Origin: a virus
Direction: 5' to 3' (one strand)
Virus record (IMG/VR): IMGVR_UViG_3300029661_000108
DNA length: 64,000 nucleotides
The notes under the pieces: model-generated
Database searches by the model: none
What the model saw: only the letters and a program-made list of their open reading frames with translations
Told to the model about the DNA's origin: nothing
Program-made: the position numbers and the translations under genes
Shown here: positions 9,296-37,676 of the stretch, one piece after another
Layout: each line of letters begins with the position of its first letter
Numbering within the stretch: position 1 is the first letter of the stretch

Positions 9296-9773
9296 AAAAA
9301 GACGAATACTTGATATTATTCCTATTATTATTTCGATTCTTCTGGTTATTGGAATTAATTTCTGTTTTCAACTGGTTTTAGTGAATGGTGATTCAATGAA
9401 TCCAACATATCAGAACAATGACTTTTTAATCTCTTCAAAAATCGCCTATAAAAACCATTCTCCTCAAAAAGGAGATATCGTGATTGTAGATGGCAAGTCT
9501 CAAGATTTAGATATAGACATCATTAAACGAGTTGTAGCAACCGCAGGTGATACTGTAGAAATTAAAAAAGGCCAACTCATTATTAATGATAAAAAAGTAG
9601 AGGAAGACTACATAGATGAAACAATGAATAAGGATATGCATAAAATAACTGTAAAGAAGAATACAGTGTTTATTATGGGAGACAACCGAAATCATAGTAT
9701 AGATTCTCGGGTTTTTGGAAGTATTCCTGTTCAGGATATCATGGGGAAAGTTATCTTTGATTTGAAATTTTAA
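9276..9773 (+). CDS. signal peptidase I (S26 family)
   Basis: N-terminal TM segment, catalytic GDSMNPT (Ser), KRVVATAGD (Lys) and GDNRNHSIDSR boxes. Confidence 0.8.
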   Translation: MTRHNTKKRRILDIIPIIISILLVIGINFCFQLVLVNGDSMNPTYQNNDFLISSKIAYKNHSPQKGDIVIVDGKSQDLDIDIIKRVVATAGDTVEIKKGQLIINDKKVEEDYIDETMNKDMHKITVKKNTVFIMGDNRNHSIDSRVFGSIPVQDIMGKVIFDLKF

Positions 9774-9774
9774 G

Positions 9775-9802
9775 AGGTATCAGAAGATACCTTTTATTTT
9801 AT
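9775..9802 (+). terminator. intrinsic terminator
   Basis: AGGTATC-agaa-GATACCT hairpin followed by TTTTATTTT, directly after the signal peptidase stop. Confidence 0.6.
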
Positions 9803-9896
9803 ATCCACTGTTAACTTAAAGTTAATTTTTATTGACTAATACCTCTTCATATGATATAATATCACTGTAAAATTTACAAAAGTGGAGTGATATTTT

Positions 9897-11537
9897 ATGA
9901 AAAAGAAAAAAGAATCGATGAAAAAAAACTCAATTATCCCATTTCTCTATGGGCTCGTTTTCATTGCTATTTATATATATTTAAGATATACAGCAGTTAC
10001 TGATGGCGTTCTTATTGCTTTTCTTCTTGTAGGCTTAATTAGCTTAGCTATCATCACATATAATCAGCTCAGAACAAATGAAATGGCTCATAGAAATGAA
10101 ATTCTTACAAATGAAGCTGTTCAGTTAACCCAAACAGCTATGCATTCTCACCCCAGCAATAGGAATGCATCTATGAAGTCAGATACTGAAAATTCTACAC
10201 CTACTCTATTTAAAGTCTACTCACCAGACAATATGAAAACAAGGATGAGTGATGTGGCTGGATGTAGTGAGGTCAAAGAAGACCTTATGGAAGTTATTGA
10301 TTTCCTTAAAAATCCTCAAAAATATAATGAAATGGGTGCACACATACCTCATGGAATTCTATTTATGGGGCCTCCTGGCACAGGAAAAACAATGCTTGCA
10401 AGAGCTGTTGCTGGTGAAGCTAATGTCAAGTATATTTATTGTTCTGGCTCAGAATTTGTAGAAAAGTTTTCTGGGGTTGGGGCTGCTCGTGTCCGCGAAT
10501 TATTTGAAGAAGCTAAAAAAGCACAGGGTCCTTGTATTATCTTTATTGATGAAATTGATGCTATTGGTGGAGCTCGTAATCTTTCTGGAAATGACGCAGA
10601 AAAAGACAAAACCTTAAATCAGTTACTAGTTGAAATGGATGGATTTGAGAAATCAAATGATATCATTGTGATTGCTGCAACAAATCGTAAGGATATGCTA
10701 GATGAAGCCCTACTGCGTCCTGGGCGTTTTGATAGACAGATTCTTGTCGGATTGCCCACAAAAGAGGAACGATTAGAAATCCTAAAAGTACATTCCAAAA
10801 ACAAGAAGGTCTCTTTGGATTTGGACTTGGAAAGTATTTCAAGAAAGACTCCAGGATTTTCGGGAGCTCAGCTTGCTGCAGTCCTTAACGAGAGTGCTCT
10901 GTTCGCTGTAAGAGAAAATAAACCATTCATTACAAATGATTTCGTGGATGAAGCAATTGATAGGGTTCTTATGGGTCCATCAAAAAAGAACAGAAAATAT
11001 ATTGATATAGAAAGAAACATCGTTGCTTATCATGAAGCTGGTCATGCTGTTGTAGGATTGACTTTGGAAAATGCTATGCAGGTTGAAAAAATCACAATCA
11101 TCCCTCGAGGTGATGCTGGTGGGTATAACTTGTTTTCTGAAAAAGAAGAGCGTTTTCTTAATACAAAAAACAGTATTCTTGCTGAAATTACTGGACTTCT
11201 TGCAGGACGTGCTGCTGAAGATTTAATGTTTAATGACATTACAAATGGAGCAACAAGTGATTTGAAACAAGCAACAAACCTAGCTAGGCGATATATCTGC
11301 CAATATGGGATGAGTCAATTGGGTCTTGTGCAAATGGACGATGTTCGAAATCTTTCTCCTCGAACATCTGAAAAGGTTGATATTGAAATCAAATCAATTC
11401 TTGATGAATGCTATTTAAAGAGTAAAGATTTATTAACTATGCATAAAAACCTTTTAGATGCCATTGCCTTGGAACTTTTGGATAAAGAAACAATTGATTC
11501 AACTCAAATTCAGAAATTGGCATGTCAGTATTGCTAG
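9897..11537 (+). CDS. FtsH-like AAA+ zinc metalloprotease (shorter than canonical FtsH)
   Basis: N-terminal TM helices, Walker [11 protein letters not shown], Walker B IIFIDEID, and M41 peptidase HEAGHAV (HExxH). SD GTGGAG precedes the ATG. Confidence 0.85.
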
Positions 11538-11908
11538 AAACTAATGTGACTTAGTGAAGCCTCTACAAACTATGTTTTGGCTTCTTTTTCATAAATATTT
11601 GCATTCTTCAACAAACTTTAGATTATAGAATAGAAATATAGAAAAATTTCCTAGTGATTTTATGTTTGAGTTATCACTTGAAGAAATAGATTAAATAAAA
11701 ATTATCAAGGTCACAAATTGTGACTTCACCAAATCACTTTCCGCAACACAAAATTCCTTTTTTATCAATAGCATAATATAATTTCTACTCTATGATATAA
11801 TATATATAGATTTTCTAATGGAGGTATATTTCTATAAATATAGAATAAAAACATAAACAAGGTTATAGTGATTTGCTATAGCCTCTTATTATAATTGGAG
11901 GTGGTTCA

Positions 11909-12376
11909 ATGCCCTATTTAGATATCGCTTTTACATTTGTTCTCTTAAGTATCTGTGCCTACACTGATACAAAGTTCAGAAAAATATATAACTGGATGAC
12001 TCTTCCCTTCATAGCTATTGGTATTCTTAATACACTCCTGCTCTATGGACCTAAAGAGGGATTCATGAATTGTCTTTGGCTAATTCCTGCCCTTATTCTT
12101 TGTATTATCGTATTTAAACTGCATCAGATTGGTGGAGGTGATGCAAAGCTTATTTTAAGTGTTGGGGCTCTTATGGGTCTGGAATACACTCTTATTATCC
12201 TTCTTATTTCCTTTATATTAGGCTGGTTCTATTCAATATATCAGCTTCTTAAAAAAAGAAATAATAAAAAAGGAGTCTTAAAGGGACATCAGAAGATTAT
12301 GATTCCTCTTGGAAGTATTATGCTGGTGGCTTTTGGGATTGTTGGGGGATTACAGGTATATTTGTTGTATTTATAA
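11909..12376 (+). CDS. A24-family prepilin peptidase-like membrane protein (CpaA/TadV-like)
   Basis: Polytopic membrane protein with an N-terminal Asp region (YTDTKFRKIYN) and the second catalytic motif GGGDAKL. Confidence 0.6.
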   Translation: MPYLDIAFTFVLLSICAYTDTKFRKIYNWMTLPFIAIGILNTLLLYGPKEGFMNCLWLIPALILCIIVFKLHQIGGGDAKLILSVGALMGLEYTLIILLISFILGWFYSIYQLLKKRNNKKGVLKGHQKIMIPLGSIMLVAFGIVGGLQVYLLYL

Positions 12377-12536
12377 AACCTAAAGAAGAAGTTTTTTACT
12401 TCTTCCTTTGTATACTTTTCTTATTTCAAATAACACAAACACAAAAGTATCGCCTCCTGGAATGGCATGTTTTTCGTTGCTAAAGATGAAACTAGGGTTG
12501 CAACAGTTATTTCAATGCGTAGAGGTGAAATTGCCT

Positions 12537-12650
12537 TTGGCTTGCAGGATAAAACCTGCCTTAAAAAAATGCTTGCCAAGTATCCTATTCATCGTTTTTG
12601 TAGATGTGACTATTAACGTTGTCTCAGAATTTTGGAGACATGAGCCATAA
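12537..12650 (+). CDS. small hydrophobic peptide (37 aa, TTG start), copy A of the duplicated cassette
   Basis: SD AGAGGTG nine nt upstream of TTG. Peptide ACRIKPALKKCLPSILFIVFVDVTINVVSEFWRHEP. Against copy B the differences are mostly synonymous third-position changes (agt/agc, atc/att, ttc/ttt, tta/ttg). Confidence 0.45.
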   Translation: MACRIKPALKKCLPSILFIVFVDVTINVVSEFWRHEP

Positions 12651-12654
12651 AAAG

Positions 12655-12680
12655 CAAGGGAGCAAAGGCTCCCTTTTTCC
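12655..12680 (+). terminator. intrinsic terminator of cassette A (possibly bidirectional)
   Basis: GGGAGC-aaag-GCTCCC followed by TTTTT. Confidence 0.6.
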
Positions 12681-12803
12681 TTGGCTTAATTATATTATAT
12701 AATGTTTTTGTTTTTTATTTATTTTTGATTGTGATTTGAAATTATCTATCTTGTAGCTTAAACTCAAGATAATAAAAAAGAGAACCCTCTCAGATTCCCT
12801 CAA

Positions 12804-13646
12804 TTAACATTTTACAAACTCGTTAAATACTCTTGTCCCCTCTTCATTTCCTAGATGATTTTTCAAACAGTCAAGCAGGTCCATTTTACTTTGATAAGCT
12901 TCAACTACATAATCACTAATAGATAATTTTTCCGCCTTTTCTTTTAACTTCCGACTTGGATACAGTCTTTTATTATTTGAATAATTTTCGAAACATTTTA
13001 GTGCCTTTTTATATTCCTTCAACTTATTTATTTGTTTTCCGTTTATTAAAAATTGAAATTCTCTATTAAATATATCCCATTTCAAATTCAATATATCATT
13101 ACGAATCTCTTCATGTCTAAGTAATATTAACTTATCATAGTTAAGCTGACCTAGTAATTGGCATAGCTCATTCTCATTTCTTATATACACTAGCATGTCC
13201 AAATCTATAAATTTTTCCAATCTCTTTATTAAGAGTGGTTCTTTTTGATAATCAGTAAGTATTTGACTAATAGATACATTAGGTATGCAGTCAATGTTGA
13301 TGCTATAATCACCTTTTAATATGTTTATGGCATCAACATATCCTTTATCTTTCGATACAATATAATACTCTTTGTTTTCTTTATATTTTAAAACCATCTT
13401 TGTTAGCTCAACAACAATACAAAAATCTAGTGAGTTCTTCTTTTGTTTACTGGCTGTATGTGTATAAAGCCCTATATTTCTATGATTCATCAATGTATTC
13501 ACACTATTAAAATCTATTTTTGCATTATTATTGCAAAAATAATAATAGTACGCATTTTTATCAATTGGAAAAGGCAATTCAAAACCTACATTTTCACAAT
13601 CAATAAAATAAACTTTCTTATATTTCTTGAATTTATTATTAAACAT
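12804..13646 (-). CDS. NYN-domain (LabA-like/PIN-like) putative nuclease with a C-terminal helical extension
   Basis: N-terminal KVYFIDCENV, then ...DFCIVVELTKM... and YYIVSKDKGYVDAINIL, matching the NYN pattern (vfiDgeNv / ivlvSgDsD). Confidence 0.55.
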   Translation of the reverse strand: MFNNKFKKYKKVYFIDCENVGFELPFPIDKNAYYYYFCNNNAKIDFNSVNTLMNHRNIGLYTHTASKQKKNSLDFCIVVELTKMVLKYKENKEYYIVSKDKGYVDAINILKGDYSINIDCIPNVSISQILTDYQKEPLLIKRLEKFIDLDMLVYIRNENELCQLLGQLNYDKLILLRHEEIRNDILNLKWDIFNREFQFLINGKQINKLKEYKKALKCFENYSNNKRLYPSRKLKEKAEKLSISDYVVEAYQSKMDLLDCLKNHLGNEEGTRVFNEFVKC

Positions 13647-13717
13647 TTACACCCTTCTTTCCATTTAAATTGCCAATTTTGGGGGCATTTCACTGCTCGT
13701 CCACACCTTGACAATGA

Positions 13718-14290
13718 TTACTTTTTATGCTCTATCCCATTTAAATTCTCTAGCTTTTTTTTCATTAGCAAAGCTGTATTATATGCATCATAAGAAGCAT
13801 GATGTTCAGTCCCCTTAAACTCTCCAAATTCCTTTTCAACAATCTGCATAAGTGATGGCAACTGCTGAAAGTTTTCCTGTTCCATGATATAGGATTGAAG
13901 GTCAATAAATGTCATCTCATTAAATTCCTTCTCGAATCCATTATCCTTACAGTTCACTCTTAAAACTGCTGAATCTCTAGGCCCCCATGATACATATAAA
14001 GTCTCTAAATTATCCTTATGAATCCATTTCAGGAATTCTTTAAAAACTTCACTAAAATTTATTGATGATAGTATTTCATCTCTTGAAACTCCTGTTAAGG
14101 ACAAGATAGAATTGGAAGGAATGTTATGAGGTTTAATGATTCTTCTGAATTTATCTCCTTCAATAATTCTTTCTCCATATCTTGTTGTATATATTTTCTT
14201 AGCTGCTAATTCAAATATTTCTGTCTTATTCCTTTCTTTTGAAAATTCTAAATCAATAACGATATATTGCCCAGCATAATCATAATTCAT
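13718..14290 (-). CDS. DEDD-family 3'-5' exonuclease (DnaQ/KapD-like)
   Basis: Exo I VIDLEF (DxE) and Exo III HHASYDAYNTALL (H-x4-D). Confidence 0.65.
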   Translation of the reverse strand: MNYDYAGQYIVIDLEFSKERNKTEIFELAAKKIYTTRYGERIIEGDKFRRIIKPHNIPSNSILSLTGVSRDEILSSINFSEVFKEFLKWIHKDNLETLYVSWGPRDSAVLRVNCKDNGFEKEFNEMTFIDLQSYIMEQENFQQLPSLMQIVEKEFGEFKGTEHHASYDAYNTALLMKKKLENLNGIEHKK

Positions 14291-14430
14291 TAATGGTTTT
14301 CTCTCCTTTCATTCTCCAAATAAAAAGAATCTACAATTGCTATGTAGATTCTTTTGTTTCGTATATATTACCCTTATATTTTACCACATATCAAAGGATA
14401 TGTACTATGTTCTTTTGAATCTCAATCAAT

Positions 14431-16620
14431 TTATAATCTTAGCATTTTTTTAAACACCTTAAACATTTCATTTGGCAAATTCTGCGGATTCTTAACACAT
14501 ACAGAGTTTTCATAAATTTGTCTAATTGAATCAAAATCAAAATTACCTAAACCAATGCCAACTGAATGGACTCGATAATGTTTTTTGAAAGTATTCATGA
14601 TTTTCTGCATATCTTCAATAGCAGATTTTCCACCATAATCATATGCGCATGGTTCGCCATCTGAAAGTATAAAGAAATAAAGGTCTTCATCAGGTTGAGA
14701 TGATTTTACCAACTCCCTTAAAGAATGAAATATAGCCAACCCATCTCGGTTATTGTCATGAGCTTTAATATGAAAGAGATTATCGAGGGTCTGAAGTTTT
14801 CGACAGTTTTGGAAAGATATATATTTCCTTATTCTAAATACTTCTGAAGAAAAATCTTCATCATGTCCATATACAGCAAATGGGATTTTCAGCTTTTGAG
14901 CAGCCTTTGCTACCATCCAGCAGCCAACGATTGCATTTTCCATTTTAGAACCTCTCATACTTCCTGATTCATCTACTAAAATGATGAATCGGACTTTTTT
15001 CTTCTCTCCAGACGTTTCCTTCTTAAAAACCTGCAAATCAGTTTTTATTCTATAAAGTCCACTCATATCTATGCTTCCTTCAAATCTGCCCTTTGATATA
15101 TCATCCTGACTTCTGTGCATAAGTATCTTTTTCATTTTTTTAGATAATTCATTCACAGACGATGATAATTCATCTTTCTTTATCATTTTTAATGCTTCTT
15201 TTCCCTCTGATGTATATTCTTCTTTCATAGAAAGAGAATCCTCCAAATCAATCATAGATACAGAAACGCTATGATGACACGCTGTCTCGCCTGCTCTTTC
15301 ATCTTCATCAGATGTAATAGAGGCTTTCTCTGCTCTATCTTTAGTCTTCTCGAAAGTTTTTGATGCTCCATCTAAAGCTTCACTCATCGAATTGATGGCT
15401 TCATCTTCTAATTCCTTTGCTGTTGGTTTTGTTCTTTCTGGAGCAGCTGATTCATCTGACTTTGAATCAGCTTCATCTTTCAGACTCTCTTTACCAAGTT
15501 CTTTTGCAGATTCTTCCATTTCCTTTTTTAAATCTTCAGGTAATCCTAAATCATATTTACTTGGAGCTGAAGATTTCATTTTAGCACCACCTCTCGCAGT
15601 GCCTCCTCCGCCCATGCTTTTGACTACTTCTGAATCAACTGAACCTGTACTTTTACTATGACTTTCTGCCTCTTTTGCCATTTTTTCCATCATCTCTTTG
15701 GCATGGTCAATATTATAAAGGTATTCATTTGTAAGATTATCTGCTATTTTATCAAGTAGTGGCTGACAAAGATTCAGTAATGCTTTGGCAGTTGCTGCTC
15801 TTTCATAGGTTGTTGGTGCTTCAAATCTTGCATATAAAGCAAGATTCTTAATCTTTTCAATATCATCATCTTCAAACAATGCATTCAATACCTGTATATC
15901 AAAATGTTTTCGATATCCAACATGTCCAAAAGCCTGTGCTTCAAAAAGCACAGCTCTTAGAGTATTGTCATCCCAATTATCCATGTCAAGGCATACATAA
16001 CCTGATTCAATGGCCTGTCTGAAAAGTTCTTTCTGCTTATCATGTCCTATATCCCTTAAAAATGTTAGGCATCCATTTTCTTCCCTTCCTTTTTCACACA
16101 TACATCTATCTACAGATAAGTCTTCATATATGTTATTGACCTCTGGCATATTAACTTTAAAAACAAAGTCTCCTACCTTTTCTCTGACAAAAGGAATTAA
16201 ATCTGCCTTATCTTCTTCCTTGGCAGAATGATAATCATTTGCTGCTTTTTCTACTTCTTTTTTAGCATCACAAAAGTCTTGGTGAAGCTGACCAATTATA
16301 TTAAAGTCTGAATAAAGCAAATGCCCAGACTCATGGTAGATGAGGGCTTTTGCAATGATATGATAATGAGATGTATCAAAGGCTTTATCTTCATAAGTCC
16401 ACAAATCTATATTCATAATAGGATTGCCATCTTTATCAAAACTTGTAAAACTGCTCCCAACCTTATCCATATAAAAGTTTAAGTTCATTCTTTTGGAAAC
16501 TATCTGAGCCAAACTCTTGAAAGAATCTTTGTACCCCTTGCTGGAAAGTAATTCTATCCCTGTTAAAATTCTTTTTTTACTTTTCTTTCCCAATAGTGAT
16601 TTCTTTGTTGGTTTCTTCAT
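14431..16620 (-). CDS. von Willebrand factor A domain protein (CobT-like), with an N-terminal HExxH motif and an acidic linker
   Basis: C-terminal vWA MIDAS ILVDESGSMRG. HESGH in the N-terminal region. Long E/K/S-rich low-complexity middle. Confidence 0.75.
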   Translation of the reverse strand: MKKPTKKSLLGKKSKKRILTGIELLSSKGYKDSFKSLAQIVSKRMNLNFYMDKVGSSFTSFDKDGNPIMNIDLWTYEDKAFDTSHYHIIAKALIYHESGHLLYSDFNIIGQLHQDFCDAKKEVEKAANDYHSAKEEDKADLIPFVREKVGDFVFKVNMPEVNNIYEDLSVDRCMCEKGREENGCLTFLRDIGHDKQKELFRQAIESGYVCLDMDNWDDNTLRAVLFEAQAFGHVGYRKHFDIQVLNALFEDDDIEKIKNLALYARFEAPTTYERAATAKALLNLCQPLLDKIADNLTNEYLYNIDHAKEMMEKMAKEAESHSKSTGSVDSEVVKSMGGGGTARGGAKMKSSAPSKYDLGLPEDLKKEMEESAKELGKESLKDEADSKSDESAAPERTKPTAKELEDEAINSMSEALDGASKTFEKTKDRAEKASITSDEDERAGETACHHSVSVSMIDLEDSLSMKEEYTSEGKEALKMIKKDELSSSVNELSKKMKKILMHRSQDDISKGRFEGSIDMSGLYRIKTDLQVFKKETSGEKKKVRFIILVDESGSMRGSKMENAIVGCWMVAKAAQKLKIPFAVYGHDEDFSSEVFRIRKYISFQNCRKLQTLDNLFHIKAHDNNRDGLAIFHSLRELVKSSQPDEDLYFFILSDGEPCAYDYGGKSAIEDMQKIMNTFKKHYRVHSVGIGLGNFDFDSIRQIYENSVCVKNPQNLPNEMFKVFKKMLRL

Positions 16621-16659
16621 AATTTCTCCTTTATATTGAAAGGGATGAAAAAATCATCC

Positions 16660-18456
16660 CTAAACTAATTCTATTGTTTCAAATTCATATTCTTTTCTGG
16701 GCATTTTAGGTTTAACGCCTGCAAATGTATTCATAATCTCATTATAAGCATAATCAATCACAGGGTCTCCTGTTGCAGTAAAGTCTTCTGGTTTATTTGA
16801 CCCCTTTACTCTATCAACTTCTTTTGATAGAGGGGCAAGTACTGTTGTAAAAGCGGCCCTTACTGGATTGTCAATATCCTTAATCTTTTTAGCCCAAGAT
16901 AGACAATTACGTAAGTCAATATTTTGTGTTGTTTCATCTCCATCATCTCTAATTTGTGTCTTGATATTATTCTTGCATTTAATAATCTTAGAAGCTAAAT
17001 CTCTATCAATACCCGTAGAGTTAACTATGATATTTGTTTCTGTCATCTCATCATACCCTGATAAATTATGCCACTCATCAACACGTGAAATATGAGACAA
17101 ATTATCTTCTTTTGTTCCTTCATACCCTATATTCATAGCTTCACAATATCTAAAATTATCATGAGCGATGATTGTTTCTCCAGTTTGAGGAATTGTATAC
17201 ATTCTTGTATCATCAAGCACATTATTTGTTGCTGAAACAACGCCTGCATTCACCATGTTTCTTTCATCAAAGAAAAAGATTCCACCATATCTCATAATTC
17301 TTGTCAATGGACCTTCACAAAATTCTGTTGTACCATCCTTAATTGTCATATATCCATATAAGTGAGATGTTTCTGTATCACTATTTCCTGTCAGAATCAT
17401 GAAAGGCAATTTTAACGCCCCTGCCATCATTTTAACGAATGTTGTTTTCCCTGATGCAGATGGACCATAGAATCCCATTTTCCAGATATTTCCGTTTTTA
17501 AAGCTTTGAATTGATTCCCATAACTCATCTGTTATTGACTCCTTATTTTTTTCAAATAAGTCCATAGCAATTTGACGAGTTCTTTGTAAATCAAGTGGTA
17601 ATTTCTTTGCTTCTGCATCAGACATTAATGAATAGTCTCTTTCAGAATATGGTACAAATACAGTTGCTGCTTTAGCCTCTTTTCCTTTTTTACTCTTTCT
17701 TTTAATAGTTGGAGCATGAATTTCCTTAACTACTTCATCCCCAATATCAAGAGATAAATCATATACATTATTGTGCATTGCAACTAAAGGAAGAATATTA
17801 TATTGGATATAAGGGGCATATTCTTCATCAATGAGTTCATCATTGTCAATCTCCTTGAAATTAAATCCATCAAATGTTTTAGCAGTAAAATATAGCGAAT
17901 CACATAAAGGCAAAAATTTCTCTGCTTCTGATGATTCGACTAAAGTTCCTGCAGTTATAGAATCATATTTTTCCTTAGGAAGATTTTTAAATTCACACAA
18001 ATATGAGAAAACTTCTCTTGCTTCATCACTTGCTTTATTTCCCTTTTTCACAAACTCTAATAAATCATATCCCAAAATCAATCTATAAAAGAGATGTGAA
18101 TAGATATTTGTAGCATAAATCATTTTATCTGCTGGAATGACTACGAATGTTTCAATAGGATTTTTCGTACCCCCAGTGAATTTACATAAAAGAAATTCCT
18201 TTTTATCCTTTTTTCCCCACGCCATAATTGTGTTTTCATCAACAATTTGCGAATCAATTACTGCTTTAGCAATTTTACTTGATAGCCTTGATACGATTTT
18301 TCCACTTGATGGTGAAGGTGTTGTATTTTTAATTGAATAAAAATGCTCATCCTCCTTGTTTGCTGTAAATTGAGTGTTTGGAATTAAACTTCCTGCATCC
18401 GTTGAAGAAAATGCCATCCTAGATGCTTGATAAATCGTTTTTTTAATTGCTGCCAT
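16660..18456 (-). CDS. AAA_5-type ATPase (MoxR/CobS-like)
   Basis: Walker A GPSASGKTT, Walker B IFFFDERN; dynein-related AAA core in the C-terminal half. Confidence 0.75.
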   Translation of the reverse strand: MAAIKKTIYQASRMAFSSTDAGSLIPNTQFTANKEDEHFYSIKNTTPSPSSGKIVSRLSSKIAKAVIDSQIVDENTIMAWGKKDKKEFLLCKFTGGTKNPIETFVVIPADKMIYATNIYSHLFYRLILGYDLLEFVKKGNKASDEAREVFSYLCEFKNLPKEKYDSITAGTLVESSEAEKFLPLCDSLYFTAKTFDGFNFKEIDNDELIDEEYAPYIQYNILPLVAMHNNVYDLSLDIGDEVVKEIHAPTIKRKSKKGKEAKAATVFVPYSERDYSLMSDAEAKKLPLDLQRTRQIAMDLFEKNKESITDELWESIQSFKNGNIWKMGFYGPSASGKTTFVKMMAGALKLPFMILTGNSDTETSHLYGYMTIKDGTTEFCEGPLTRIMRYGGIFFFDERNMVNAGVVSATNNVLDDTRMYTIPQTGETIIAHDNFRYCEAMNIGYEGTKEDNLSHISRVDEWHNLSGYDEMTETNIIVNSTGIDRDLASKIIKCKNNIKTQIRDDGDETTQNIDLRNCLSWAKKIKDIDNPVRAAFTTVLAPLSKEVDRVKGSNKPEDFTATGDPVIDYAYNEIMNTFAGVKPKMPRKEYEFETIELV

Positions 18457-18632
18457 AAATTTTCTCCTTTCTTTTCTGCTCTTTTTATCTGATATCTTTT
18501 TTCTCTCATACGTATTGTCTCCATGACTTTTGTCAAAAGAAAAAAGACTTTCTCTCTGTAGACACAGATAAAAAGTCGTTTAATAATACATATATATTTT
18601 ATCATAAATCATTTGATTTGTGATAAGTCTTT

Positions 18633-18989
18633 TTATTCTATAGAGGATTTTGAATGCTTTTGAAACATCTTTTCAAACTCCTCTCTCTTCCGATGAAGAT
18701 TTTCCTCGTCTAGCTGTTTCCATAACTCTTTTTCCTTTGAAATGCGTTCATATGCATCATTTAAAAAAAGTGCATCTGGAGACATTCCAAAATAGCGTGA
18801 GATAAGATAAGCATCATTATATGAGAGTTCATTTAACCCTCTTTCTAACGCACTCACATATTGAGGTGTTTTTCCTATAACTTTTGCAACATCAGCCTGT
18901 GTAATATTTAACCTTTTTCGCGTTTTTCTATAATGATTTAATCTTCTGCATTCCTGTAAATTCATAACTTCCCCTCCACTATCTAACAA
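18633..18989 (-). CDS. XRE-family helix-turn-helix transcriptional regulator
   Basis: HTH LNITQADVAKVIGKTPQYVSALERG. Confidence 0.7.
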   Translation of the reverse strand: MLDSGGEVMNLQECRRLNHYRKTRKRLNITQADVAKVIGKTPQYVSALERGLNELSYNDAYLISRYFGMSPDALFLNDAYERISKEKELWKQLDEENLHRKREEFEKMFQKHSKSSIE

Positions 18990-19279
18990 AATTCTATATT
19001 TGTCATTTTATGATATAATAAATATGTACCTTTAGTACGAATTGTTTTTTTGTGATTCATATGGACTTTCCCTCCCTTTTATTGAGGATAGAAATAACAT
19101 ATCAGCTTATTTTATCCTACTAGAGTTTATATCCAATCACAAGACCTATACAAATGAGTTATCTCCCTAACAAGTTTGTATATCATGTCATTGATTTGAC
19201 TTTGAAAGTAATTGATTTTAAGAGACAGCATATAATATGTCTCGTCCGAAGCCCCTCATCTAGGGGCCCTTTTTTATAT

Positions 19280-19975
19280 CTATATATTGACATTCGTATC
19301 TACATTCTCATTAAAATCAATCATATTTCCACTCACTGCATTATAAAATTCCTCATTTTCATCAAAAGGTATAAACCATTGCTGTTTCTTATCATCATAA
19401 TAAAACTCAACAATAAATGTTTTCTGATAATTTCTTTTTATTGTATGGACTGCGGATTTAATCTTTTCAATATTACGAGTTAAAAATTCCTCATGATTAT
19501 AATTTATATCTATCTGTGTATCATCGTTCACAAGCTGCTCGATAATCTTATCTAATATCTCTAAATTATTATATGTCGTTACAGTTATCTTTGCTTTGGA
19601 ATAAGGAATATGACTTGACCAGTTATCAACTGTCATTGTCTGTATTTGATAAGAAACATTCCCGTATATATGTTCTTCTATTATATTGTGAATATCCTGA
19701 TTATTTTCAAATCCTGTCTCAATAATAAACCTTTCTGGAGTGGTTTGAGAAATCTCTGCAATTTCTTCAATGTTTTTACTGTTCCATGCTATAAATAGCG
19801 ATTCTACTTTAGCCTGAATTTGAATCCGCTGCCTATAATTATCTTTTAGCACTCCTATAACCAATAGCAAAGCGAAGCACATGAAAACAGACATTAGCAT
19901 TTTTGCTATTTTTCTATAATTAAATAATCCCCATAAAATGAATGATTTTATCTTTAGTCTTAATCTTCTTATCAT
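19280..19975 (-). CDS. membrane-anchored hypothetical protein (231 aa)
   Basis: Single N-terminal TM segment (CFALLLVIGVL). Confidence 0.4.
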   Translation of the reverse strand: MIRRLRLKIKSFILWGLFNYRKIAKMLMSVFMCFALLLVIGVLKDNYRQRIQIQAKVESLFIAWNSKNIEEIAEISQTTPERFIIETGFENNQDIHNIIEEHIYGNVSYQIQTMTVDNWSSHIPYSKAKITVTTYNNLEILDKIIEQLVNDDTQIDINYNHEEFLTRNIEKIKSAVHTIKRNYQKTFIVEFYYDDKKQQWFIPFDENEEFYNAVSGNMIDFNENVDTNVNI

Positions 19976-20177
19976 TTGTCACCTCTCTTATTTCCTTTTT
20001 ATTATATCACTATAATCGTTTTTCTATATTATACAAATTATAATTATCATTTTTTAGCATTTATACAAATTGTGATATAATATAAGTGTCTTTTTAATAC
20101 GAATTTAATTATTATAATTACTTTCAAAACGTAAGTCCTAGTTATCCATAAATCTAGGCAGAAGGGAGAAAAATTTT

Positions 20178-20702
20178 ATGGAACAATTTATTTTATTATC
20201 AGTTTATTCAGAGTATGAAAAAACATCAGAAATGATAGCTAATACTCAAAGATTTATACCTTTTATTGCGCTTGCATTTATATTCTTTATAATTGTACTA
20301 GTTATTGTTGGAATTTGTACTGCCTTTTTTAGCTATAAGGAGCTAACTGTTAAAAGAAAAACAGAGCAAGCAAAAATTAGTGCAGAATTATTGAAAGCGA
20401 AATCAACTTTATTAGCTGCTCAAGCACAGTTTGCTCATGCTCAGCAAAAAGATGTTGATAGTGTAACTGCAACTGCTTTAAGAACTGCTTTTGCTAAGAT
20501 TAAAAGTCCTGAGGATGTTTTATCTGTTGTCGATTCAGCTGAACATCAGGCTCATTCTCAACTTTTAAAATCACCTCTTTTTGATGATGATTTCACTATT
20601 GAGTCTGAAGCAGACCTTAATCATTTTCTTGACCGCATGGCAGAAGATTTAACTTCTGGTTTACAATCTCAAGATGTAACTGATACTATTCCCGTAGAGT
20701 AG
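20178..20702 (+). CDS. membrane hypothetical protein (174 aa)
   Basis: N-terminal TM (FIALAFIFFIIVLVIVGI) followed by an Ala/Gln-rich helical region. Confidence 0.4.
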   Translation: MEQFILLSVYSEYEKTSEMIANTQRFIPFIALAFIFFIIVLVIVGICTAFFSYKELTVKRKTEQAKISAELLKAKSTLLAAQAQFAHAQQKDVDSVTATALRTAFAKIKSPEDVLSVVDSAEHQAHSQLLKSPLFDDDFTIESEADLNHFLDRMAEDLTSGLQSQDVTDTIPVE

Positions 20703-20756
20703 GAATTCAAAATTCTGTAGCATTTGCTACAGTTTTTTTGTGCATTATTTTATAAA

Positions 20757-21248
20757 TTATATCTTCCTATATTCTACCTTCAAATCTTTATCAAGCTTAT
20801 AGGAGATTATGGAAGGAGTGTCTTTTTTATATGCATGGACATTCATAATATACCCTTCATCTATCTGATGAAATTCTATTGCAATTGGAATAATAGATGT
20901 TGTCTTTAACATATCGGATACTCTCCTATGTTCTATTTTAACACTTTCACAAATCCATAAAATGTTTGAAATATTTGTAAGTTGAGAATAGATAAGAACT
21001 TGTCCAAGGTGCTTAGAGTCACTGTTTTCATACTGATTCTCTACAATCAGCCCTCCTTCTCCCTCTTTCTCTTTGTATATCATATCTATTCTATACTCAC
21101 CTATTGTGGCTTCTGTTTTAAAAAGAGAAATGGGATTATCAAAGATGTTGAGGGTTTTAGCTATATCTGGAATAAGATTATTTTTAGCCAGCCATGGTGT
21201 AAAATCTGTAGTCTCATTTGGGAAGATATCTCGTAAATCAATTTTCAC
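20757..21248 (-). CDS. hypothetical protein, possibly a PD-(D/E)xK-like nuclease (163 aa)
   Basis: Weak pattern D...E-N-Q...K (IVENQYENSDSKHLGQ); speculative. Confidence 0.3.
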   Translation of the reverse strand: MKIDLRDIFPNETTDFTPWLAKNNLIPDIAKTLNIFDNPISLFKTEATIGEYRIDMIYKEKEGEGGLIVENQYENSDSKHLGQVLIYSQLTNISNILWICESVKIEHRRVSDMLKTTSIIPIAIEFHQIDEGYIMNVHAYKKDTPSIISYKLDKDLKVEYRKI

Positions 21249-21280
21249 TCCTTTCTCACTCCTGGACGTTTGCCCAAATT

Positions 21281-21847
21281 TTACTTCATCGAAAAATCTA
21301 ATATCTTTATCTGATTATCTCTTTCTTTTGTCTTTATATATAAATCAAAATGATAAAACATTTCATATAATGAATCTTCCTCATAACAAAATAGGAATTT
21401 CTTCTCCTGCAAATCAAGTATGGAATATACCCCTGTACTATTCCCTAAGAAACATTTTAATTCTATTTTTCCCATAGTTCCAAATAAAGGATTATAGTTA
21501 GCCAAATAACTTAGATAGGGAGTGAAAACAGCAAATTCACAAAAGCCATACTCATCTATCAGAATATCTAAACAAAAAGATTCACCTTGATTCTTGTTTC
21601 TTAAAAGAGAAAAGTTATCACTATAATATAAAGAAGCCTTTGCCTTTTCTTTCTCCATTGGTAAAACATTCATTTTCTTTAGGCTTTTCAAAATCTTTTT
21701 AAAATCATCACCCACTACAAATAGATGCCGAATACTTCCATAATTCAATTGATGGTTTCTTATAAGAATTTCTTCTTCAATACTTTTCAGGTATGTTTCT
21801 AGTTTCAAATCAAATAACCTCCATAAAAAAAGTGTCAGGCTTAGCAC
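21281..21847 (-). CDS. hypothetical protein (188 aa) in the operon with the nucleotidyltransferase and Y-family polymerase
   Basis: ORF only; operon position. Confidence 0.35.
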   Translation of the reverse strand: MLSLTLFLWRLFDLKLETYLKSIEEEILIRNHQLNYGSIRHLFVVGDDFKKILKSLKKMNVLPMEKEKAKASLYYSDNFSLLRNKNQGESFCLDILIDEYGFCEFAVFTPYLSYLANYNPLFGTMGKIELKCFLGNSTGVYSILDLQEKKFLFCYEEDSLYEMFYHFDLYIKTKERDNQIKILDFSMK

Positions 21848-21867
21848 GACACTTAAAAGTATAATAT

Positions 21868-22770
21868 CTATCTAGAATCTGCTTTGGCTCCTTTCTTTTC
21901 TTGATTTGTTTTTTGAATGCTCTTGATAACATCTATTTTTACACAATCTGAAACATAATCCTCAATAAGAGAATTAAGTTTATCCAACGTTATATCATTA
22001 ACTGTGAGAGAATTATTCTCCAGTAACTTGTTTATTTCACATTCGGCTTTTTTCACATATGTATCAGCCAAATAAATTGCTTCTGAATACTCTATTGGTG
22101 CTGTTTTATATTTCTTAATCTTATTTTTCTCTTTTATTGATAGAAAATCAAGATTCATAAGTGATTCAAAGTTTACTTTTCCATCTAATCTAGCAACTTC
22201 TGAGACCATTTCAGATAAACGTGCAAGATGATGCAACTGCTTTGGGTTATATTTATAAATATCAAAAATTTCTTGTCCAGAATCTGTTCTCTTTTCAAGC
22301 CCCTTTCTTTTTTCATAAATAAATCCCTGCATTGACTTAACAAATCTTTTTACATCCCGATTTGAGATATCGTCTCTCATTTCCTTCAAAGATTTTAAAA
22401 ATAATAAAGTTCTAACACGTTGGTATTCCTTATTTACATAGAAATATGGGGTATATAATAACTCCAGATATGTTGGATTCATCTTATAAAGAAGATTTCC
22501 TAATAATCTAATATCTTTCACTTCAATATGACTCTTATCATTCATGACAAGTTCTTTAGAAATCATATTTGGTCTTTCAAGTAAGTCTTTAAGCGTTGGG
22601 ATAATAAAGCACTTAACATCAAAATCACTGCTATAGTCGTCAGTATATTCGTCAAAACCATAATTCTGGGAACCTTGTAAACACATAAATGCAACATGAT
22701 AATCAGTATTTTCTTTAAGCCAGTTCATTTTCTTTTTCATTTCATTTAATACCATTTGTTTTTTTGCCAT
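21868..22770 (-). CDS. predicted nucleotidyltransferase (Pol-beta-like NTase)
   Basis: GSQNYGFDEYTDDYSSDFDV, matching the G[SG]-x(9-13)-DxD minimal NTase motif. Confidence 0.5.
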   Translation of the reverse strand: MAKKQMVLNEMKKKMNWLKENTDYHVAFMCLQGSQNYGFDEYTDDYSSDFDVKCFIIPTLKDLLERPNMISKELVMNDKSHIEVKDIRLLGNLLYKMNPTYLELLYTPYFYVNKEYQRVRTLLFLKSLKEMRDDISNRDVKRFVKSMQGFIYEKRKGLEKRTDSGQEIFDIYKYNPKQLHHLARLSEMVSEVARLDGKVNFESLMNLDFLSIKEKNKIKKYKTAPIEYSEAIYLADTYVKKAECEINKLLENNSLTVNDITLDKLNSLIEDYVSDCVKIDVIKSIQKTNQEKKGAKADSR

Positions 22771-22876
22771 ATTTCTATCAATCCCCCTATCTCAAGTATT
22801 TCTTTACAACCACAATTATAACATATTATTAGATTTTAGTCAATAATATGGATTTTATTTACTTAGATAAATTATT

Positions 22877-24127
22877 TCATCTTAAAAAACCTGGTGGATG
22901 AATATCCATTCCTAACTGTGTTGAAAAATCAGAAAGTTCCTCATCTAGTAGACTATGACCATATTTTATGCTTTTTTCTCCCCACCTCTCTTTAATTTCC
23001 TGAATAATCTCCTCTAAATGCAACTGTTCATAACGGTCCTCTTCATTAGCAGTATTAAATAGACTCATCTGATACGCATAAGTTTCCTTCTCAACAAGGC
23101 TGCTGACAGATATTGAAAGACTTCTTAAAGGAATAGCCATATTCCAATTATCCCTAAGAAGAATCATTACCATATCCAAGATTTCCTGTGCTATGTTTGT
23201 AGGAGTATCTACTCGCTTTTGCCTGCTTAATCCCTGTAAATCCTTATACCTCATACCAATAGATATAACAGACCCTAGCTTATTTGATTGTCGCAATCGT
23301 TTAGCAACACTTTCTGCAAGCATTGACAGGACTATCTTTGCTTCCTCAATAGTATGTATATCATGTTTTGCTGTTATGCCATTCCCTACACTCTTTATCA
23401 CTTGCTGACTTGAATTGACTGAGAGAGTGTCATAGCCATTTGCAAACAGCCATACCATTTCACCATTCTTCCCCAGAAAACTCTTGATATATTCTTTAGA
23501 TGATAATGCTAAATCTCCTAATGTATAGATATTTCTTTCATTCAATTGTGATGATGTTGCTTTTCCTATATAAAGAATATCTGCAACGGGTAATGGAAAA
23601 ACCATATCTTTAAAATTATCTCGTGTTATCACTGCAAGCCCTTGTTTCTTATCTAAGTCACTTCCTAATTTTGCAAAAACCTTATTAAAACTTAACCCCA
23701 TCGATACTGTCAACCCAAGTTCTTTAAACACTCTTCTTTGAATCTCCTCGGCTAATTCCATAGCAGTCTTATGAAAAAGTTTTTCGGTTCCTGTAATATC
23801 AATCCAGGCTTCATCCAAGCCAAAACTTTCAACCTTATCACTATATTCTCGATAAATTCTTTTGACTTCCTCTGTATAGAATAAATAGTCATCATAATGC
23901 GGAGGAACAATTAACAGTTCTGGGCATTTCTGAAAAGCGTCTCTCAGTGATTCACCAGTTTTAATATGATACTTTTTAGCCAAATCATTTTTTGCAAGAA
24001 TAATTCCATGCCTGTCCTCTTCATGACCTCCAATAGCCATTGGAACATTTCTTAATTCTGGATACATCATTTCTTCAATCTGAGCATAGCAATGATTAAT
24101 ATCACTATGGATTATCCATCTTTCCAT
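22877..24127 (-). CDS. Y-family translesion DNA polymerase (UmuC/DinB-like)
   Basis: N-terminal IIHSDINHCYAQIE (cf. UmuC LCDVNSFYASCE) and the catalytic GLDEAWIDITG motif. Confidence 0.85.
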   Translation of the reverse strand: MERWIIHSDINHCYAQIEEMMYPELRNVPMAIGGHEEDRHGIILAKNDLAKKYHIKTGESLRDAFQKCPELLIVPPHYDDYLFYTEEVKRIYREYSDKVESFGLDEAWIDITGTEKLFHKTAMELAEEIQRRVFKELGLTVSMGLSFNKVFAKLGSDLDKKQGLAVITRDNFKDMVFPLPVADILYIGKATSSQLNERNIYTLGDLALSSKEYIKSFLGKNGEMVWLFANGYDTLSVNSSQQVIKSVGNGITAKHDIHTIEEAKIVLSMLAESVAKRLRQSNKLGSVISIGMRYKDLQGLSRQKRVDTPTNIAQEILDMVMILLRDNWNMAIPLRSLSISVSSLVEKETYAYQMSLFNTANEEDRYEQLHLEEIIQEIKERWGEKSIKYGHSLLDEELSDFSTQLGMDIHPPGFLR

Positions 24128-24240
24128 ATGTCACCCTCCTTACAATTCCATTATATATTCTTTACAGATAATGTGATTTATTATCTGTAATAATAAAACC
24201 ATTTTTTCGGTGTTAAAACAAAAAAGAGCAGCAATGCTAC

Positions 24241-24786
24241 TCACTCGTATCTATGTTTTTTCTTAGTACAATCTTTCCAGCTTCTGCTATATTGTCTTGA
24301 TATGTCGTCCCATGATGTTGGCAGGTTTTTTATTCTACCGTTTTTTAAAGATAATTTTGTATTTGGATAATTCTCCTTATATTCTCTTCTCTCCTCTTTT
24401 GAAACTATGTTCTTTAAACTATGTGTAGTGTGAGGTTTTCTATAGTGTTTATAATGATTATGTCCAATCTGAGGACAACTTTTGTATTTGCGTTTGTAAA
24501 ATTCAAGTCTTTCATTGCGGTAATTATCATAGAGTTTTTGAAGATTAATATAAGTTTTTGTATTATATTCAGCAAAAAGGAAAACTGTTCCCTTTGTACA
24601 CATGAAATAATCATCTTGAATTATAAAAAAATTATTTTTCCAAACATCTTCCCAATTTTGAAAATTTAATGTATCTGAAAATTCCCATTTACTGTCTATG
24701 ATTAATTTTCCATCTTCTGAAAATTTGTAAGTGGCAGAATAAATATCGTAAGTTTTAGCTTTATAATTTGAATGTATAGCTTTCAT
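24241..24786 (-). CDS. hypothetical protein (181 aa) with a very basic C-terminus
   Basis: ORF only. Confidence 0.35.
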   Translation of the reverse strand: MKAIHSNYKAKTYDIYSATYKFSEDGKLIIDSKWEFSDTLNFQNWEDVWKNNFFIIQDDYFMCTKGTVFLFAEYNTKTYINLQKLYDNYRNERLEFYKRKYKSCPQIGHNHYKHYRKPHTTHSLKNIVSKEERREYKENYPNTKLSLKNGRIKNLPTSWDDISRQYSRSWKDCTKKKHRYE

Positions 24787-25016
24787 ATCTTCCTCCTAAA
24801 AAAGACTATCTTTCCTTGAAAAATAGCCACTTCGTTATATATTACTATAAATAGTATATCATGATTAAAAACATATTTAATTTTATCAATATTTAATTTT
24901 ATCAACAGGTTTATTCTTATTTTTATAATTCAAGTTATACTTGAATCTATTTTATATTTATGACAAAATAAAACTACGCAGAAAAGTCATTACTCTGCGT
25001 AGAGGTGAATTAGCCT

Positions 25017-25205
25017 TTGGCTTGCAGGAGAATTATACCTGCCTTGAAAAAAAGCTTGCCAAGCATTCTATTTATCATTTTTGTAGATGTCATAGAATGT
25101 CTAACAACAAAAAACATGTCACTTATTGACACAATCGTCCTAACCTGTATTGTGGATGTGACAATTAAAGTTGTCTCAGAATTTTGGAGACATGAGCCAA
25201 AATAG
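25017..25205 (+). CDS. small hydrophobic peptide (62 aa, TTG start), copy B of the duplicated cassette
   Basis: Same SD, start and frame as copy A. Carries a 72-nt in-frame insertion that looks like a partial duplication (FVDV...IVDVTIK). Same C-terminus VVSEFWRHEPK. Confidence 0.45.
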   Translation: MACRRIIPALKKSLPSILFIIFVDVIECLTTKNMSLIDTIVLTCIVDVTIKVVSEFWRHEPK

Positions 25206-25207
25206 GC

Positions 25208-25232
25208 ATGGGAGCGAAAGCTCCCTTTTATT
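25208..25232 (+). terminator. intrinsic terminator of cassette B
   Basis: GGGAGC-gaaa-GCTCCC followed by TTTTATT. Confidence 0.6.
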
Positions 25233-25342
25233 ATATCACATTTAGAAATTTGTAATGTTTTTTTAACCTCTAAGAAATGCATATTGTATTTTTAGTGCTC
25301 ATGGAAAATTATATATATCTTCTTTTTACATTTATCAGCAAA

Positions 25343-35951: not shown

Positions 35952-36025
35952 TGGTGTGAAAGACGGGAATCGAACCCGTATAGTTGGAGCCACAATCCAC
36001 CACACTACCATTGTGCTACAATCAC
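35952..36025 (-). tRNA. tRNA, probably His (GTG); two mismatches in the acceptor stem
   Basis: T-arm ACGGG-TTCGATT-CCCGT plus ACCA. Anticodon arm GTGGA-TTGTGGC-TCCAA read by hand. Confidence 0.45.
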
Positions 36026-36079
36026 CATCATTATTTTATAAAGCAACACGCAAAAAGTGAGTGTTCGTCATAAAATATT

Positions 36080-36154: not shown

Positions 36155-36162
36155 ATGTTTTT

Positions 36163-36236: not shown

Positions 36237-36279
36237 GCAAATATTTTCTTTTTGTTTTACAATATTTAACTTTATATTT

Positions 36280-37671: not shown

Positions 37672-37676
37672 ATTTT

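Follow-up and report, generated by a model that had tools for sequence, protein, structure and literature searches.

A candidate family of type I toxin–antitoxin cassettes with predicted start-codon fold-back control on large Coprobacillus replicons

A 64,000-nt stretch of viral DNA, IMG/VR record IMGVR_UViG_3300029661_000108 (hereafter the window), carries two same-strand copies of a small cassette in which a short hydrophobic open reading frame (ORF) is embedded in a heavily structured transcription unit, copy A at 12517-12680 and copy B (winB) at 24997-25232, both on the plus strand. Comparison of these copies with cassettes at related loci (designated L0xx) suggests that they probably form a candidate new family of type I toxin–antitoxin (TA) modules, whose mRNA would be controlled by a fold-back of the kind found in hok and aapA. 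An earlier description made from the sequence alone (the sequence-only reading) had likened both copies to type I TA loci. That architecture is better supported than could then be known, because checks of coding, RNA structure and the antisense promoter were all positive, while sequence membership in the Fst, TxpA or Hok families did not hold, as no match to them was found.

The two copies lie 12.5 kb apart and share segments of 84-89% identity, and a 29-nt core, GTTGTCTCAGAATTTTGGAGACATGAGCC, occurs exactly twice in the window versus 0 expected. Direct reading, a repeat finder and pairwise alignment located both copies at the coordinates first proposed for them, and the parts listed in the sequence-only reading were recovered in each: the Shine-Dalgarno (SD) sequence AGAGGTG (12521-12527 and 25001-25007), nine nt 5′ of a TTG start codon (12537 and 25017), the GCAGG-loop-CCTGC hairpin with a loop of 6 nt in copy A and 9 nt in copy B, the TTGGC...GCCAA pairing, the TGTCTC...GAGACA hairpin, and the GGGAGC...GCTCCC stem with its T-run, which the scan tool also called as a terminator in both copies. 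Two details needed correction: the copy B peptide is of 62 aa and not 61 aa, and the 72-nt duplication assigned to copy B is instead a difference of 3 nt (an indel) plus 69 nt, in which copy A carries a deletion. The features of copy B are as follows.

24928-24946, plus strand: inverted repeat ATTCAAGT-TAT-ACTTGAAT, the right half of which is the -35 box TTGAAT (24941-24946)
24964-24969, plus strand: sense -10 box CAAAAT (TAAAAT in other lineages), 17 nt after TTGAAT, a spacing kept in four lineages
24974-25002, plus strand: hairpin H0, CUACGCAGA / UCUGCGUAG, abutting the SD; four different stems occupy the same place in four lineages
25001-25007, plus strand: SD; its GGTGA is conserved in all lineages
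25013-25023, plus strand: 5′ strand of a long-distance interaction, GCCU + UUGGCUU, containing the start codon; predicted probability of being unpaired, P(unpaired), 0.03
25017-25205, plus strand: ORF of 62 aa with TTG start and TAG stop, MACRRIIPALKKSLPSILFIIFVDVIECLTTKNMSLIDTIVLTCIVDVTIKVVSEFWRHEPK; two hydrophobic helices with a conserved Asp in each
25024-25042, plus strand: hairpin H1, GCAGG-9 nt-CCUGC, with its 5′ arm beginning at ORF nucleotide +8
25058-25062, plus strand: proximal GCCAA, the alternative partner of UUGGC in local folds (the longer-range pairing of the sequence-only reading)
25172-25192, plus strand: hairpin H3, UGUCUC-9 nt-GAGACA, over codons VVSEFWRH; hairpins at homologous codons in L016, L017a and L017b
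25194-25207, plus strand: 3′ strand of the long-distance interaction, GAGCCAA-AAU-AGGC, over the final codons of the ORF together with its stop codon
25210-25229, plus strand: intrinsic terminator (H4), GGGAGC-GAAA-GCUCCC then UUUU; stems differ between lineages
25230-25238, minus strand: extended -10 box TGATATAAT, predicted promoter of the antisense RNA, firing into the terminator hairpin and the ORF
24962-25224 (ends approximate), minus strand: predicted antisense RNA of ~260 nt, complementary to essentially the whole mRNA, deduced from the promoter and the minus-strand hairpin and U-tract

The corresponding features of copy A are these.

12521-12527, plus strand: SD; the promoter upstream is decayed (CTGGAAT 12457-12463, TAAAGA 12481-12486) and H0 is lost
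12537-12650, plus strand: ORF of 37 aa in a one-helix form, with a 69-nt in-frame deletion after ~12607, MACRIKPALKKCLPSILFIVFVDVTINVVSEFWRHEP
12544-12559, plus strand: hairpin H1, GCAGG-AUAAAA-CCUGC
12620-12647, plus strand: hairpin H3 (12620-12640), then GAGCCA (12642-12647), the pairing partner of UGGCUU at the start codon (12538-12543)
12656-12675, plus strand: terminator AAGGGAGC-AAAG-GCUCCCUU, scored as a terminator on both strands
12694-12699, minus strand: TATAAT without a TG extension (TTATATAAT)

Purifying selection acts on the ORF. In a set of 11 close copies, variable sites at codon positions 1, 2 and 3 numbered 15, 9 and 29, and the ratio of nonsynonymous to synonymous polymorphism (pN/pS) was 0.31 in the peptide frame vs 0.51 and 3.05 in the other two frames, so that the synonymous bias first noticed between the two copies holds on the larger set. 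Some copies begin with TTG and others with ATG, at one and the same position, and in the L015/L007/L020 lineage a 1-nt indel just 5′ of it puts a stop codon in an alternative 49-aa frame. The codon-position bias, the pN/pS ratio, the exchange of TTG for ATG at one codon despite this frame-breaking indel upstream, and the distant protein relatives described below together argue that the region encodes a peptide, as the sequence-only reading had held. The frame is also kept in homologues across the 3-nt and 69-nt indels and 31-52% protein divergence. These data make it very improbable that the cassette is an RNA-only element (a small-RNA pair or copy-number countertranscripts) or a recombination or attachment site at the ends of a mobile island, with a coincidental ORF. 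Such an element would fit the covarying helices, the GAGCCA kept in another codon register in L016, and the position of cassettes at synteny breakpoints, with a hybrid (L015) that crosses over within the cassette and cassette sequences that are mosaics of one another; it is opposed by the preserved frame and pN/pS, by an interval between the copies that holds no integrase or transposase, by an identity of 84-89%, unlike that of duplicated att sites, and by the lack of any Rfam match.

The least probable alternative, to which we give almost no weight, is that a single polypeptide arises by frameshifting or slippage at an A7 run joining an upstream 49-aa frame (ATG 12467) to the peptide frame. 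Upstream, copies A and B have both frames open, and a copy-A variant at L013 (3904-4086), with A6 for A7, encodes exactly such a fusion (P0005). The run is, in contrast, AAAGAAAA in L010, L015, L020 and others; a TAA closes the upstream frame in L015, L007 and L020, and L016 and L017 lack that frame; downstream substitutions are mostly non-synonymous in the alternative frame; and A6 occurs in one contig vs at least six with A7. The copy alignment effectively refuted the slippage fusion, and since the A7 run is interrupted in several copies, the A6 contig is regarded as an oddity and not a mechanism.

Gene callers mark the wrong ORFs at both copies, namely the 49-aa alternative-frame ORF at 12467-12616 (plus strand) and a 90-aa antisense ORF at 25010-25282 (minus strand). 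Neither was retained as a real gene, as neither is conserved across lineages, and the true small ORF is therefore unannotated in most assemblies.

A search with the peptide returned nine family proteins among 5.8 billion, all from Coprobacillus, Massilimicrobiota or metagenome contigs, and an exhaustive HMMER scan gave four clusters, every one inside the peptide family. The Coprobacillus cateniformis (C. cateniformis) members are of 60-62 aa, and peptides overall range from 37 to 63 aa. The more distant members are P0006 of Massilimicrobiota sp. An142 (52% identity), P0007 from a syntenic metagenomic replicon (36%), and a tandem paralog beside P0007 in L017 (31%), which was uncalled and found by reading the sequence. 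The tandem cassettes occupy 8344-9046 of L017 and occur also in L018 and L019; the second ORF (8816-9007, 63 aa) is uncalled in all three contigs. The relatives keep a hydrophobic-D-x-x-E ... T ... D pattern: the Asp of the second hydrophobic segment is invariant, the Asp and the Glu of the first are each replaced in one paralog, and two Thr are conserved. Kyte-Doolittle 19-residue peaks were 1.8-2.1 (1.81 and 1.86 in copy B, 2.07 in copy A), and AlphaFold2 modelled copy B as a helical hairpin with helices at 3-31 and 36-58, at a predicted local distance difference test score (pLDDT) of 69. The sequence-only reading had a single hydrophobic helix; copy B is a two-helix form and copy A a one-helix form.

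All four diverged lineages have the long form with two segments, from which it follows that copy A lost 69 nt between the internal repeats TTGTAGATGT and TTGTGGATGT and that copy B has no duplication. On this comparison copy B is the ancestral two-helix form and copy A a deletion derivative with a decayed promoter. Copy A, which has a single helix and lacks both H0 and the TG extension, may be a weakened or read-through-dependent copy, and copy B looks intact. Antisense RNA from the copy A box would end at a bidirectional terminator at 12382-12408. Besides the copy A deletion, another decayed-looking copy is found at L044 (1132-1427), where the start codon is TAG rather than TTG or ATG, reflecting either an inactivated copy or a sequencing error; the two are at most indirect hints that the peptide may be toxic.

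The helices of the cassette RNA covary, and the RNA is thus also under selection. When the minimum free energy (MFE) of the ORF body was compared with that of synonymous recodings using the codon usage of the replicon, z-scores of -2.0, -4.2, -4.3 and -4.9 were obtained in the four lineages (Fisher p = 3e-6). The H1 and H3 regions likewise lay below their synonymous recodings, with combined p = 5e-5 for H1, a region chosen after the hairpin had been seen, and p = 1.3e-4 for H3, also chosen post hoc. A 'longest stem' statistic failed to tell real from recoded sequences, whereas the MFE-based tests did. The four hairpins H0, H1, H3 and H4 recur at homologous positions with different sequences in four lineages. 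Immediately 5′ of the SD, the H0 stems are CUACGCAGA, ACCUCUGUCG, ACCGUAUAGG and CCGCAUAC by lineage, and H1 is formed by stems of 5-8 bp from +8 that differ in sequence in all four; changes on both sides were found at 7/9 pairs of H0 and 3/5 pairs of H1. Supportively, a covariance model built from the 5′ modules of the Coprobacillus clade only recovered three distant cassettes (E = 2e-4, 2e-3 and 5e-3) in a search space of ~195 kb of loci, with just the two known copies found in the window. In its alignment 94.3% of cells pair and 10/14 pairs are changed on both sides, and the covariation score was 0.399, compared with 0.164 +/- 0.024 for shuffled alignments (0/500 reach it) and at most 0.10 with slid partners. 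The structured mRNA claimed by the sequence-only reading is hence upheld by folding and covariation: the RNA is more folded than its coding content requires.

Folding of whole predicted mRNAs indicated that the start region pairs with the last ORF codons in the MFE structure of every lineage. The paired strands are listed here.

Coprobacillus clade: 5′ strand GCCU-UUGGCUU, 3′ strand GAGCCAA-AAU-AGGC
L016: 5′ strand GUCUUU-A-UGGC, 3′ strand GCCA-GA-AAAGGC
L017b: 5′ strand UGGGCUU, 3′ strand GAGCCCA
L017a: 5′ strand GCAUG, 3′ strand CAUGC

The MFE structure of copy A is also closed over the ORF, by the GAGCCA x UGGCUU helix. For winB and L014 the start codon has a predicted P(unpaired) of 0.02-0.03, and in L016 it is H0 that masks the SD (0.02). 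L017b shows one more G-C pair, seen on both strands. In L020, L032 and L015, the copies that start with ATG, the sequence is GAGUCAU, so that the initial base of the start codon is again A-U paired. The GAGCCAG of L016 stands in another codon register (AAG AGC CAG vs GAG CCA), and its conservation is therefore at the RNA level. When the start region was scanned against the whole mRNA, its most favourable duplex was with the distal site in winB, L010, L016 and L017b, and the cognate combinations of 5′ and 3′ strands had the lowest summed energy, ranking first of 24 permutations. The fold-back belongs to the sense RNA, because its G-U pairs would be A-C mismatches in the complement. Since the proximal GCCAA pairs with the same UUGGC, it may provide a co-transcriptional, metastable holding structure.

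The promoter and terminator motifs are conserved as well. The palindrome and its -35 box are found likewise in L010, L014, L016, L017a, L017b and L020; as its right half is the -35 box, the palindrome is a possible operator. The AAAAC that follows the -10 box places the predicted transcription start, at the level of consensus, at the foot of H0. The window holds one perfect copy of the palindrome, at copy B, and a site with one mismatch (53881-53896) ~70 nt upstream of parA. The same palindrome, TCAAG-YATRA-CTTGA, also occurs with no attached ORF: five such sites lie in the 750 nt around the Massilimicrobiota cassette (L016 9700-10440), and it is seen at L017 8672-8760; these ORF-less palindromes could be operators or orphan promoters.

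Opposite the 3′ end, where an antisense promoter had been suggested as a check on the TA reading, the minus strand has TG(A/G)TATAAT right behind the sense terminator in every long-form copy of every lineage, amid unrelated flanks. On the minus strand, the complement of H0 is followed by UUUUAUUUU in the folded copies winB, L010 and L014, and the same can be read in the sequences of L016 and the L017 pair; this complement and U-tract would form a canonical intrinsic terminator of the leftward RNA. The A/T-rich -10 region of each promoter serves as the U-tract of the terminator on the opposite strand, so that the two predicted RNAs of ~260 nt are almost fully complementary. The sense promoter, TTGAAT-17-YAAAAT, is predicted to be weaker than the antisense one; a toxin promoter weaker than that of its antitoxin is the usual polarity. 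Another candidate, an internal antisense promoter at 25093-25065, was set aside, since its -35 box appeared by eye poorly conserved in the alignment of other copies, and the conserved 3′ promoter was preferred.

The replicon seems to use mainly extended -10 promoters: TGnTATAAT (TGNTATAAT) has 30 sites in the window vs 7.9 expected, many of them just upstream of ORF starts (for example at 5840, 9852, 11793, 20001, 20073, 25941 and 45287). The cassette could on this account be an ordinary 'moron', with the minus-strand TGnTATAAT as the promoter of a neighbouring minus-strand operon and no dedicated antisense regulator. This general use of the motif, and a left gene on the minus strand in winB, L010, L014, L020 and L017a, speak for such an arrangement, which we nevertheless judge improbable: the box is kept where the left neighbour is on the plus strand (L016, and L017b, whose left neighbour is its paralog L017a), a hairpin and U-tract stand between the promoter and any leftward gene, and the position of the box, fused to the terminator T-tract, is fixed across lineages whose flanks are unrelated. 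As no minus-strand gene lies to the left in L016 and L017b, the putative antisense promoter belongs to the cassette.

The same chassis is used by a second cassette type at L020 13400-13620 (minus strand), which comprises the palindrome, TTAAAAT, a hairpin CCGAGGG/CCCUCGG, AGGTGA, a TTG start, a terminator and, on the opposite strand, ATGATATAAT. It encodes an unrelated Lys-rich hydrophobic ORF of 37 aa, MASKYKNIKKKKADKQMRTKKVLEIILLIVKILSHFF, which no gene caller called, and its start codon lies inside a small hairpin whose 5′ arm overlaps the SD.

Whether the peptide is a toxin bears on the strongest of the alternatives, that it is a small non-toxic membrane or helical protein (for superinfection exclusion, lysis timing or as a regulatory subunit) tuned by mRNA structure and a cis-antisense RNA. 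The conserved polar residues D24, E27, T31, T43 and D47 suggest a specific partner or oligomer over generic membrane damage, the palindrome over the -35 box suggests regulation at the protein level, and the Massilimicrobiota copy lies near holin and lysin genes. We consider this explanation unlikely, though less so than the others, in view of features that are hallmarks of toxin control, namely sequestration of the start codon, a convergent promoter of greater strength, spread in multiple copies, decay of some copies and a second, unrelated hydrophobic ORF on the chassis; moreover, the peptide matches no PHROG, Pfam or NCBIfam family.

If the cassettes are type I TA modules, as we prefer, each copy would be an autonomous unit of ~300 nt. 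A moderate sigma-A-type promoter, TTGAAT-17-YAAAAT, overlapped by the palindrome would produce an mRNA with a protective 5′ hairpin beside the SD, and this mRNA would encode the hydrophobic peptide of 37-63 aa, ancestrally with two helices and in copy A with one. In the full-length mRNA the start codon would pair with the last ORF codons and leave the message translationally inert, the proximal GCCAA being able to hold the start codon while the RNA is being made. The stronger extended -10 promoter of the opposite strand, whose TATAAT is the terminator T-tract reversed, would yield a complementary antisense RNA ending at the complement of the 5′ hairpin, which would block translation of mRNA that has turned active, trigger its decay, or both. 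In this scheme we infer the existence of both transcripts, the toxicity of the peptide, the antitoxin role of the antisense RNA and activation by 3′ trimming. Several copies on a par-equipped, tRNA-rich C. cateniformis replicon of ~180-200 kb could serve in addiction or exclusion and, as repeated sequences, provide points of recombination.

Among the closest known systems are hok/sok and aapA/IsoA. In hok, pairing of the 5′ and 3′ mRNA ends keeps translation off, metastable pairings occur, and the antisense RNA comes from a stronger promoter (PMC6733600). The cassettes resemble hok/sok of plasmid R1 in their small hydrophobic peptide, plasmid-type replicon, 5′-3′ closed mRNA, alternative 5′ pairings and (as predicted here) stronger antisense promoter. 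They differ in having no Hok sequence similarity and no mok-like leader ORF, in a helix that masks the start codon itself, in a predicted antisense RNA that covers the whole mRNA and not a 5′ leader, in a Gram-positive host (Erysipelotrichales), and in an ancestral peptide with two helices. In aapA/IsoA of Helicobacter pylori, the full-length mRNA is made inert by a 5′-3′ long-distance interaction, hairpins within the ORF covary, and the system is multicopy (PMC5416894, PMC6733600). Shared with it are the fold-back, conserved ORF hairpins, multiple copies and loops available for kissing with the antisense RNA; its 30-aa peptide, however, is unrelated, its fold-back masks the SD, whereas here the start codon is masked (and in L016 the SD too, through H0), IsoA overlaps only the 5′ part, and 3′-end processing, demonstrated there, is conjectured here.

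Among Gram-positive systems, the type I TAs of Clostridioides difficile (C. difficile) prophages are multicopy, unannotated and convergent, and act in element maintenance (PMC7699646). With CD0977.1-RCd11 and its relatives the cassettes have in common a gut Firmicute host, several unannotated copies on mobile elements, convergent transcription (predicted here), a ribosome-binding site 7-8 nt upstream of the start codon, and a role in element maintenance (proposed here). The C. difficile toxins, of 34-53 aa, have an N-terminal hydrophobic helix and a Lys-rich tail, unlike the cassette peptide with its basic N-terminus, two Asp-containing helices and WRHEP-type tail, and two protein searches with the cassette peptide returned no C. 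difficile protein. The txpA/RatA and bsrG/SR4 systems of Bacillus subtilis and Enterococcus par (fst RNA I/RNA II) are Gram-positive modules on prophage-like elements or plasmids, in which convergent promoters give RNAs overlapping at their 3′ ends and the structure of the toxin mRNA limits its translation. The Gram-positive host, convergent promoters (predicted here), mobile-element location and structured mRNA are all shared with the cassettes; overlap is partial in those systems, whereas interleaved promoters and terminators are predicted here to yield near-complete complements. Both txpA and bsrG are mentioned in PMC6733600.

Type I TA loci are hard to find, as the genes are tiny and usually unannotated and the families do not cross-match. 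For Hok/Gef, no Pfam-A match at E <= 10 was obtained with any of six family members, and for Fst/Ldr and TxpA/BsrG, searches of Pfam, NCBIfam, PHROGs and PADLOC gave only noise-level matches to unrelated transmembrane proteins. In Rfam, only tRNAs of the window pass the gathering threshold, the best local E-values at the cassettes being 0.13 or worse and far below gathering scores, and neither both copies at permissive thresholds nor the related loci L010, L014, L016 and L017 gave a match. An exact 26-mer of the cassette is absent from IMG/VR and GTDB representative genomes, protein-pattern scans of the same two collections yielded no confirmed relative, and the cassette with 24 kb around it has no DNA match in GenBank phages or PLSDB plasmids. 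The chassis pattern is absent from IMG/VR and gave 14 loci in metagenomes, seven true cassettes and seven false positives from an unrelated marine gene. Lying outside all the protein and RNA families searched, the cassettes are a candidate for a family not described before.

Several observations weigh against the TA reading. The sense -10 and -35 boxes fall below the threshold of the scan tool. The family is tiny, with its nine proteins and four independent lineages, so that the covariation involves few events, and the covariance-model alignment was fitted to the structure. In L017a the long-distance interaction is weak (-7 kcal/mol), and in L020 the proximal partner is the stronger one. The 'antisense terminator' could be a by-product, because A-rich promoters automatically yield U-rich complements. 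A soluble helical hairpin may also be what the peptide forms, given that the segments are short and carry conserved Asp/Glu and that the pLDDT is only 69. Finally, the type I systems of Gram-positive bacteria that have been studied best do not typically show a full antisense overlap or a palindrome over the toxin promoter.

The related replicons, identified by flanking proteins and relatives of the peptide, are of ~180-200 kb and come from C. cateniformis isolates, metagenome-assembled genomes and human-gut metagenomes, and one C. cateniformis contig bears at least three cassette copies; GCA_000186525.1 and GCA_003463235.1 are examples of carrier assemblies. As scans of GTDB representatives found no cassette, the window was treated as part of a strain-variable large plasmid or phage-plasmid. 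Its genes encode ParA/ParB (53963-55947), a DnaD-like initiator (41400-43112), a RecD-like helicase, RecJ, a Lon-like protease, topoisomerase III, an FtsH-like protease, S26 and A24 peptidases, a Y-family polymerase and a SIR2 protein, and relatives also carry genes for RepA_N, SecY, ArdC, DNA polymerase III alpha, SSB, holin and lysin.

The 12.5-kb interval between the copies encodes a PIN-like protein, a DEDDh exonuclease, a VWA/AAA+ pair, a helix-turn-helix protein, an RlaP-like nucleotidyltransferase and a Y-family polymerase. The sequence-only reading took it for an accessory block bracketed by the two copies, a view that was not borne out: no integrase or transposase domain was found in 12.8-24.8 kb, the G+C content equals that of the surroundings, the interval is present in every contig long enough to show it, and none of the contigs has the A24 peptidase side joined to the SIR2 side, as an empty site would. 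An att-flanked integrated island was not supported on the same grounds, together with the imperfect identity of the repeats, and the interval is not shown to be a discrete island. In L001 (14752-17243), an IS110-family transposase lies inside the AAA_5 (MoxR-like) gene of the interval and is followed by ArdC-like genes, a rearranged variant of the 12.5 kb.

Cassettes do coincide with synteny breakpoints between related replicons. L015 follows the copy-A side of the window at 98.8% to mid-cassette and then the right flank of L010, the third C. cateniformis copy, at 97.9%; L007, from an independent sample, shares the start of this junction, although L015 might be misassembled at low coverage. 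L020 tracks L010 through the cassette and ~20 nt beyond and then diverges completely, and metagenome contigs often end at a cassette. We propose tentatively, and with less confidence than the TA assignment itself, the wider picture of an undescribed Erysipelotrichales type I TA family on a chassis whose -10 boxes double as U-tracts of the opposite strand, with start-codon fold-back and at least two unrelated peptides, in which the cassettes act as crossover points shuffling modules between tRNA-array replicons of ~180-200 kb. To our knowledge, no type I TA has been described in Erysipelotrichales. The blueprint obtained by comparative genomics (promoter, protective hairpin, fold-back, terminator and antisense promoter) is directly searchable in gut metagenomes. 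The fold-back control, if true, suggests that the strategy of hok and aapA also arose in a Gram-positive lineage, and the cassettes may help explain why gut commensals stably carry accessory replicons of very large size; they could also be used as counter-selection tools, as in C. difficile.

Some further observations concern the replicon and its relatives. An array of 23 tRNA genes for most amino acids occupies 35952-40073 on the minus strand, with two calls differing between programs: tRNA-Ala at 38400-38478 was reported by ARAGORN only, and 37758-37828 stands in the Rfam gathering list only. The element has secretion and proteolysis genes of its own, with those for an S26 signal peptidase, an FtsH-like AAA-M41 protease and an A24 prepilin-type peptidase of 155 aa in the stretch just before copy A (9276-12376, plus strand). 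A SecY homologue also lies beside RepA_N in the related contig L007 (7497-8729). After the cassette in L016, 1.9 kb (10189-12072) holds no called gene and no Rfam match and is richer in G+C at ~10930-11350.

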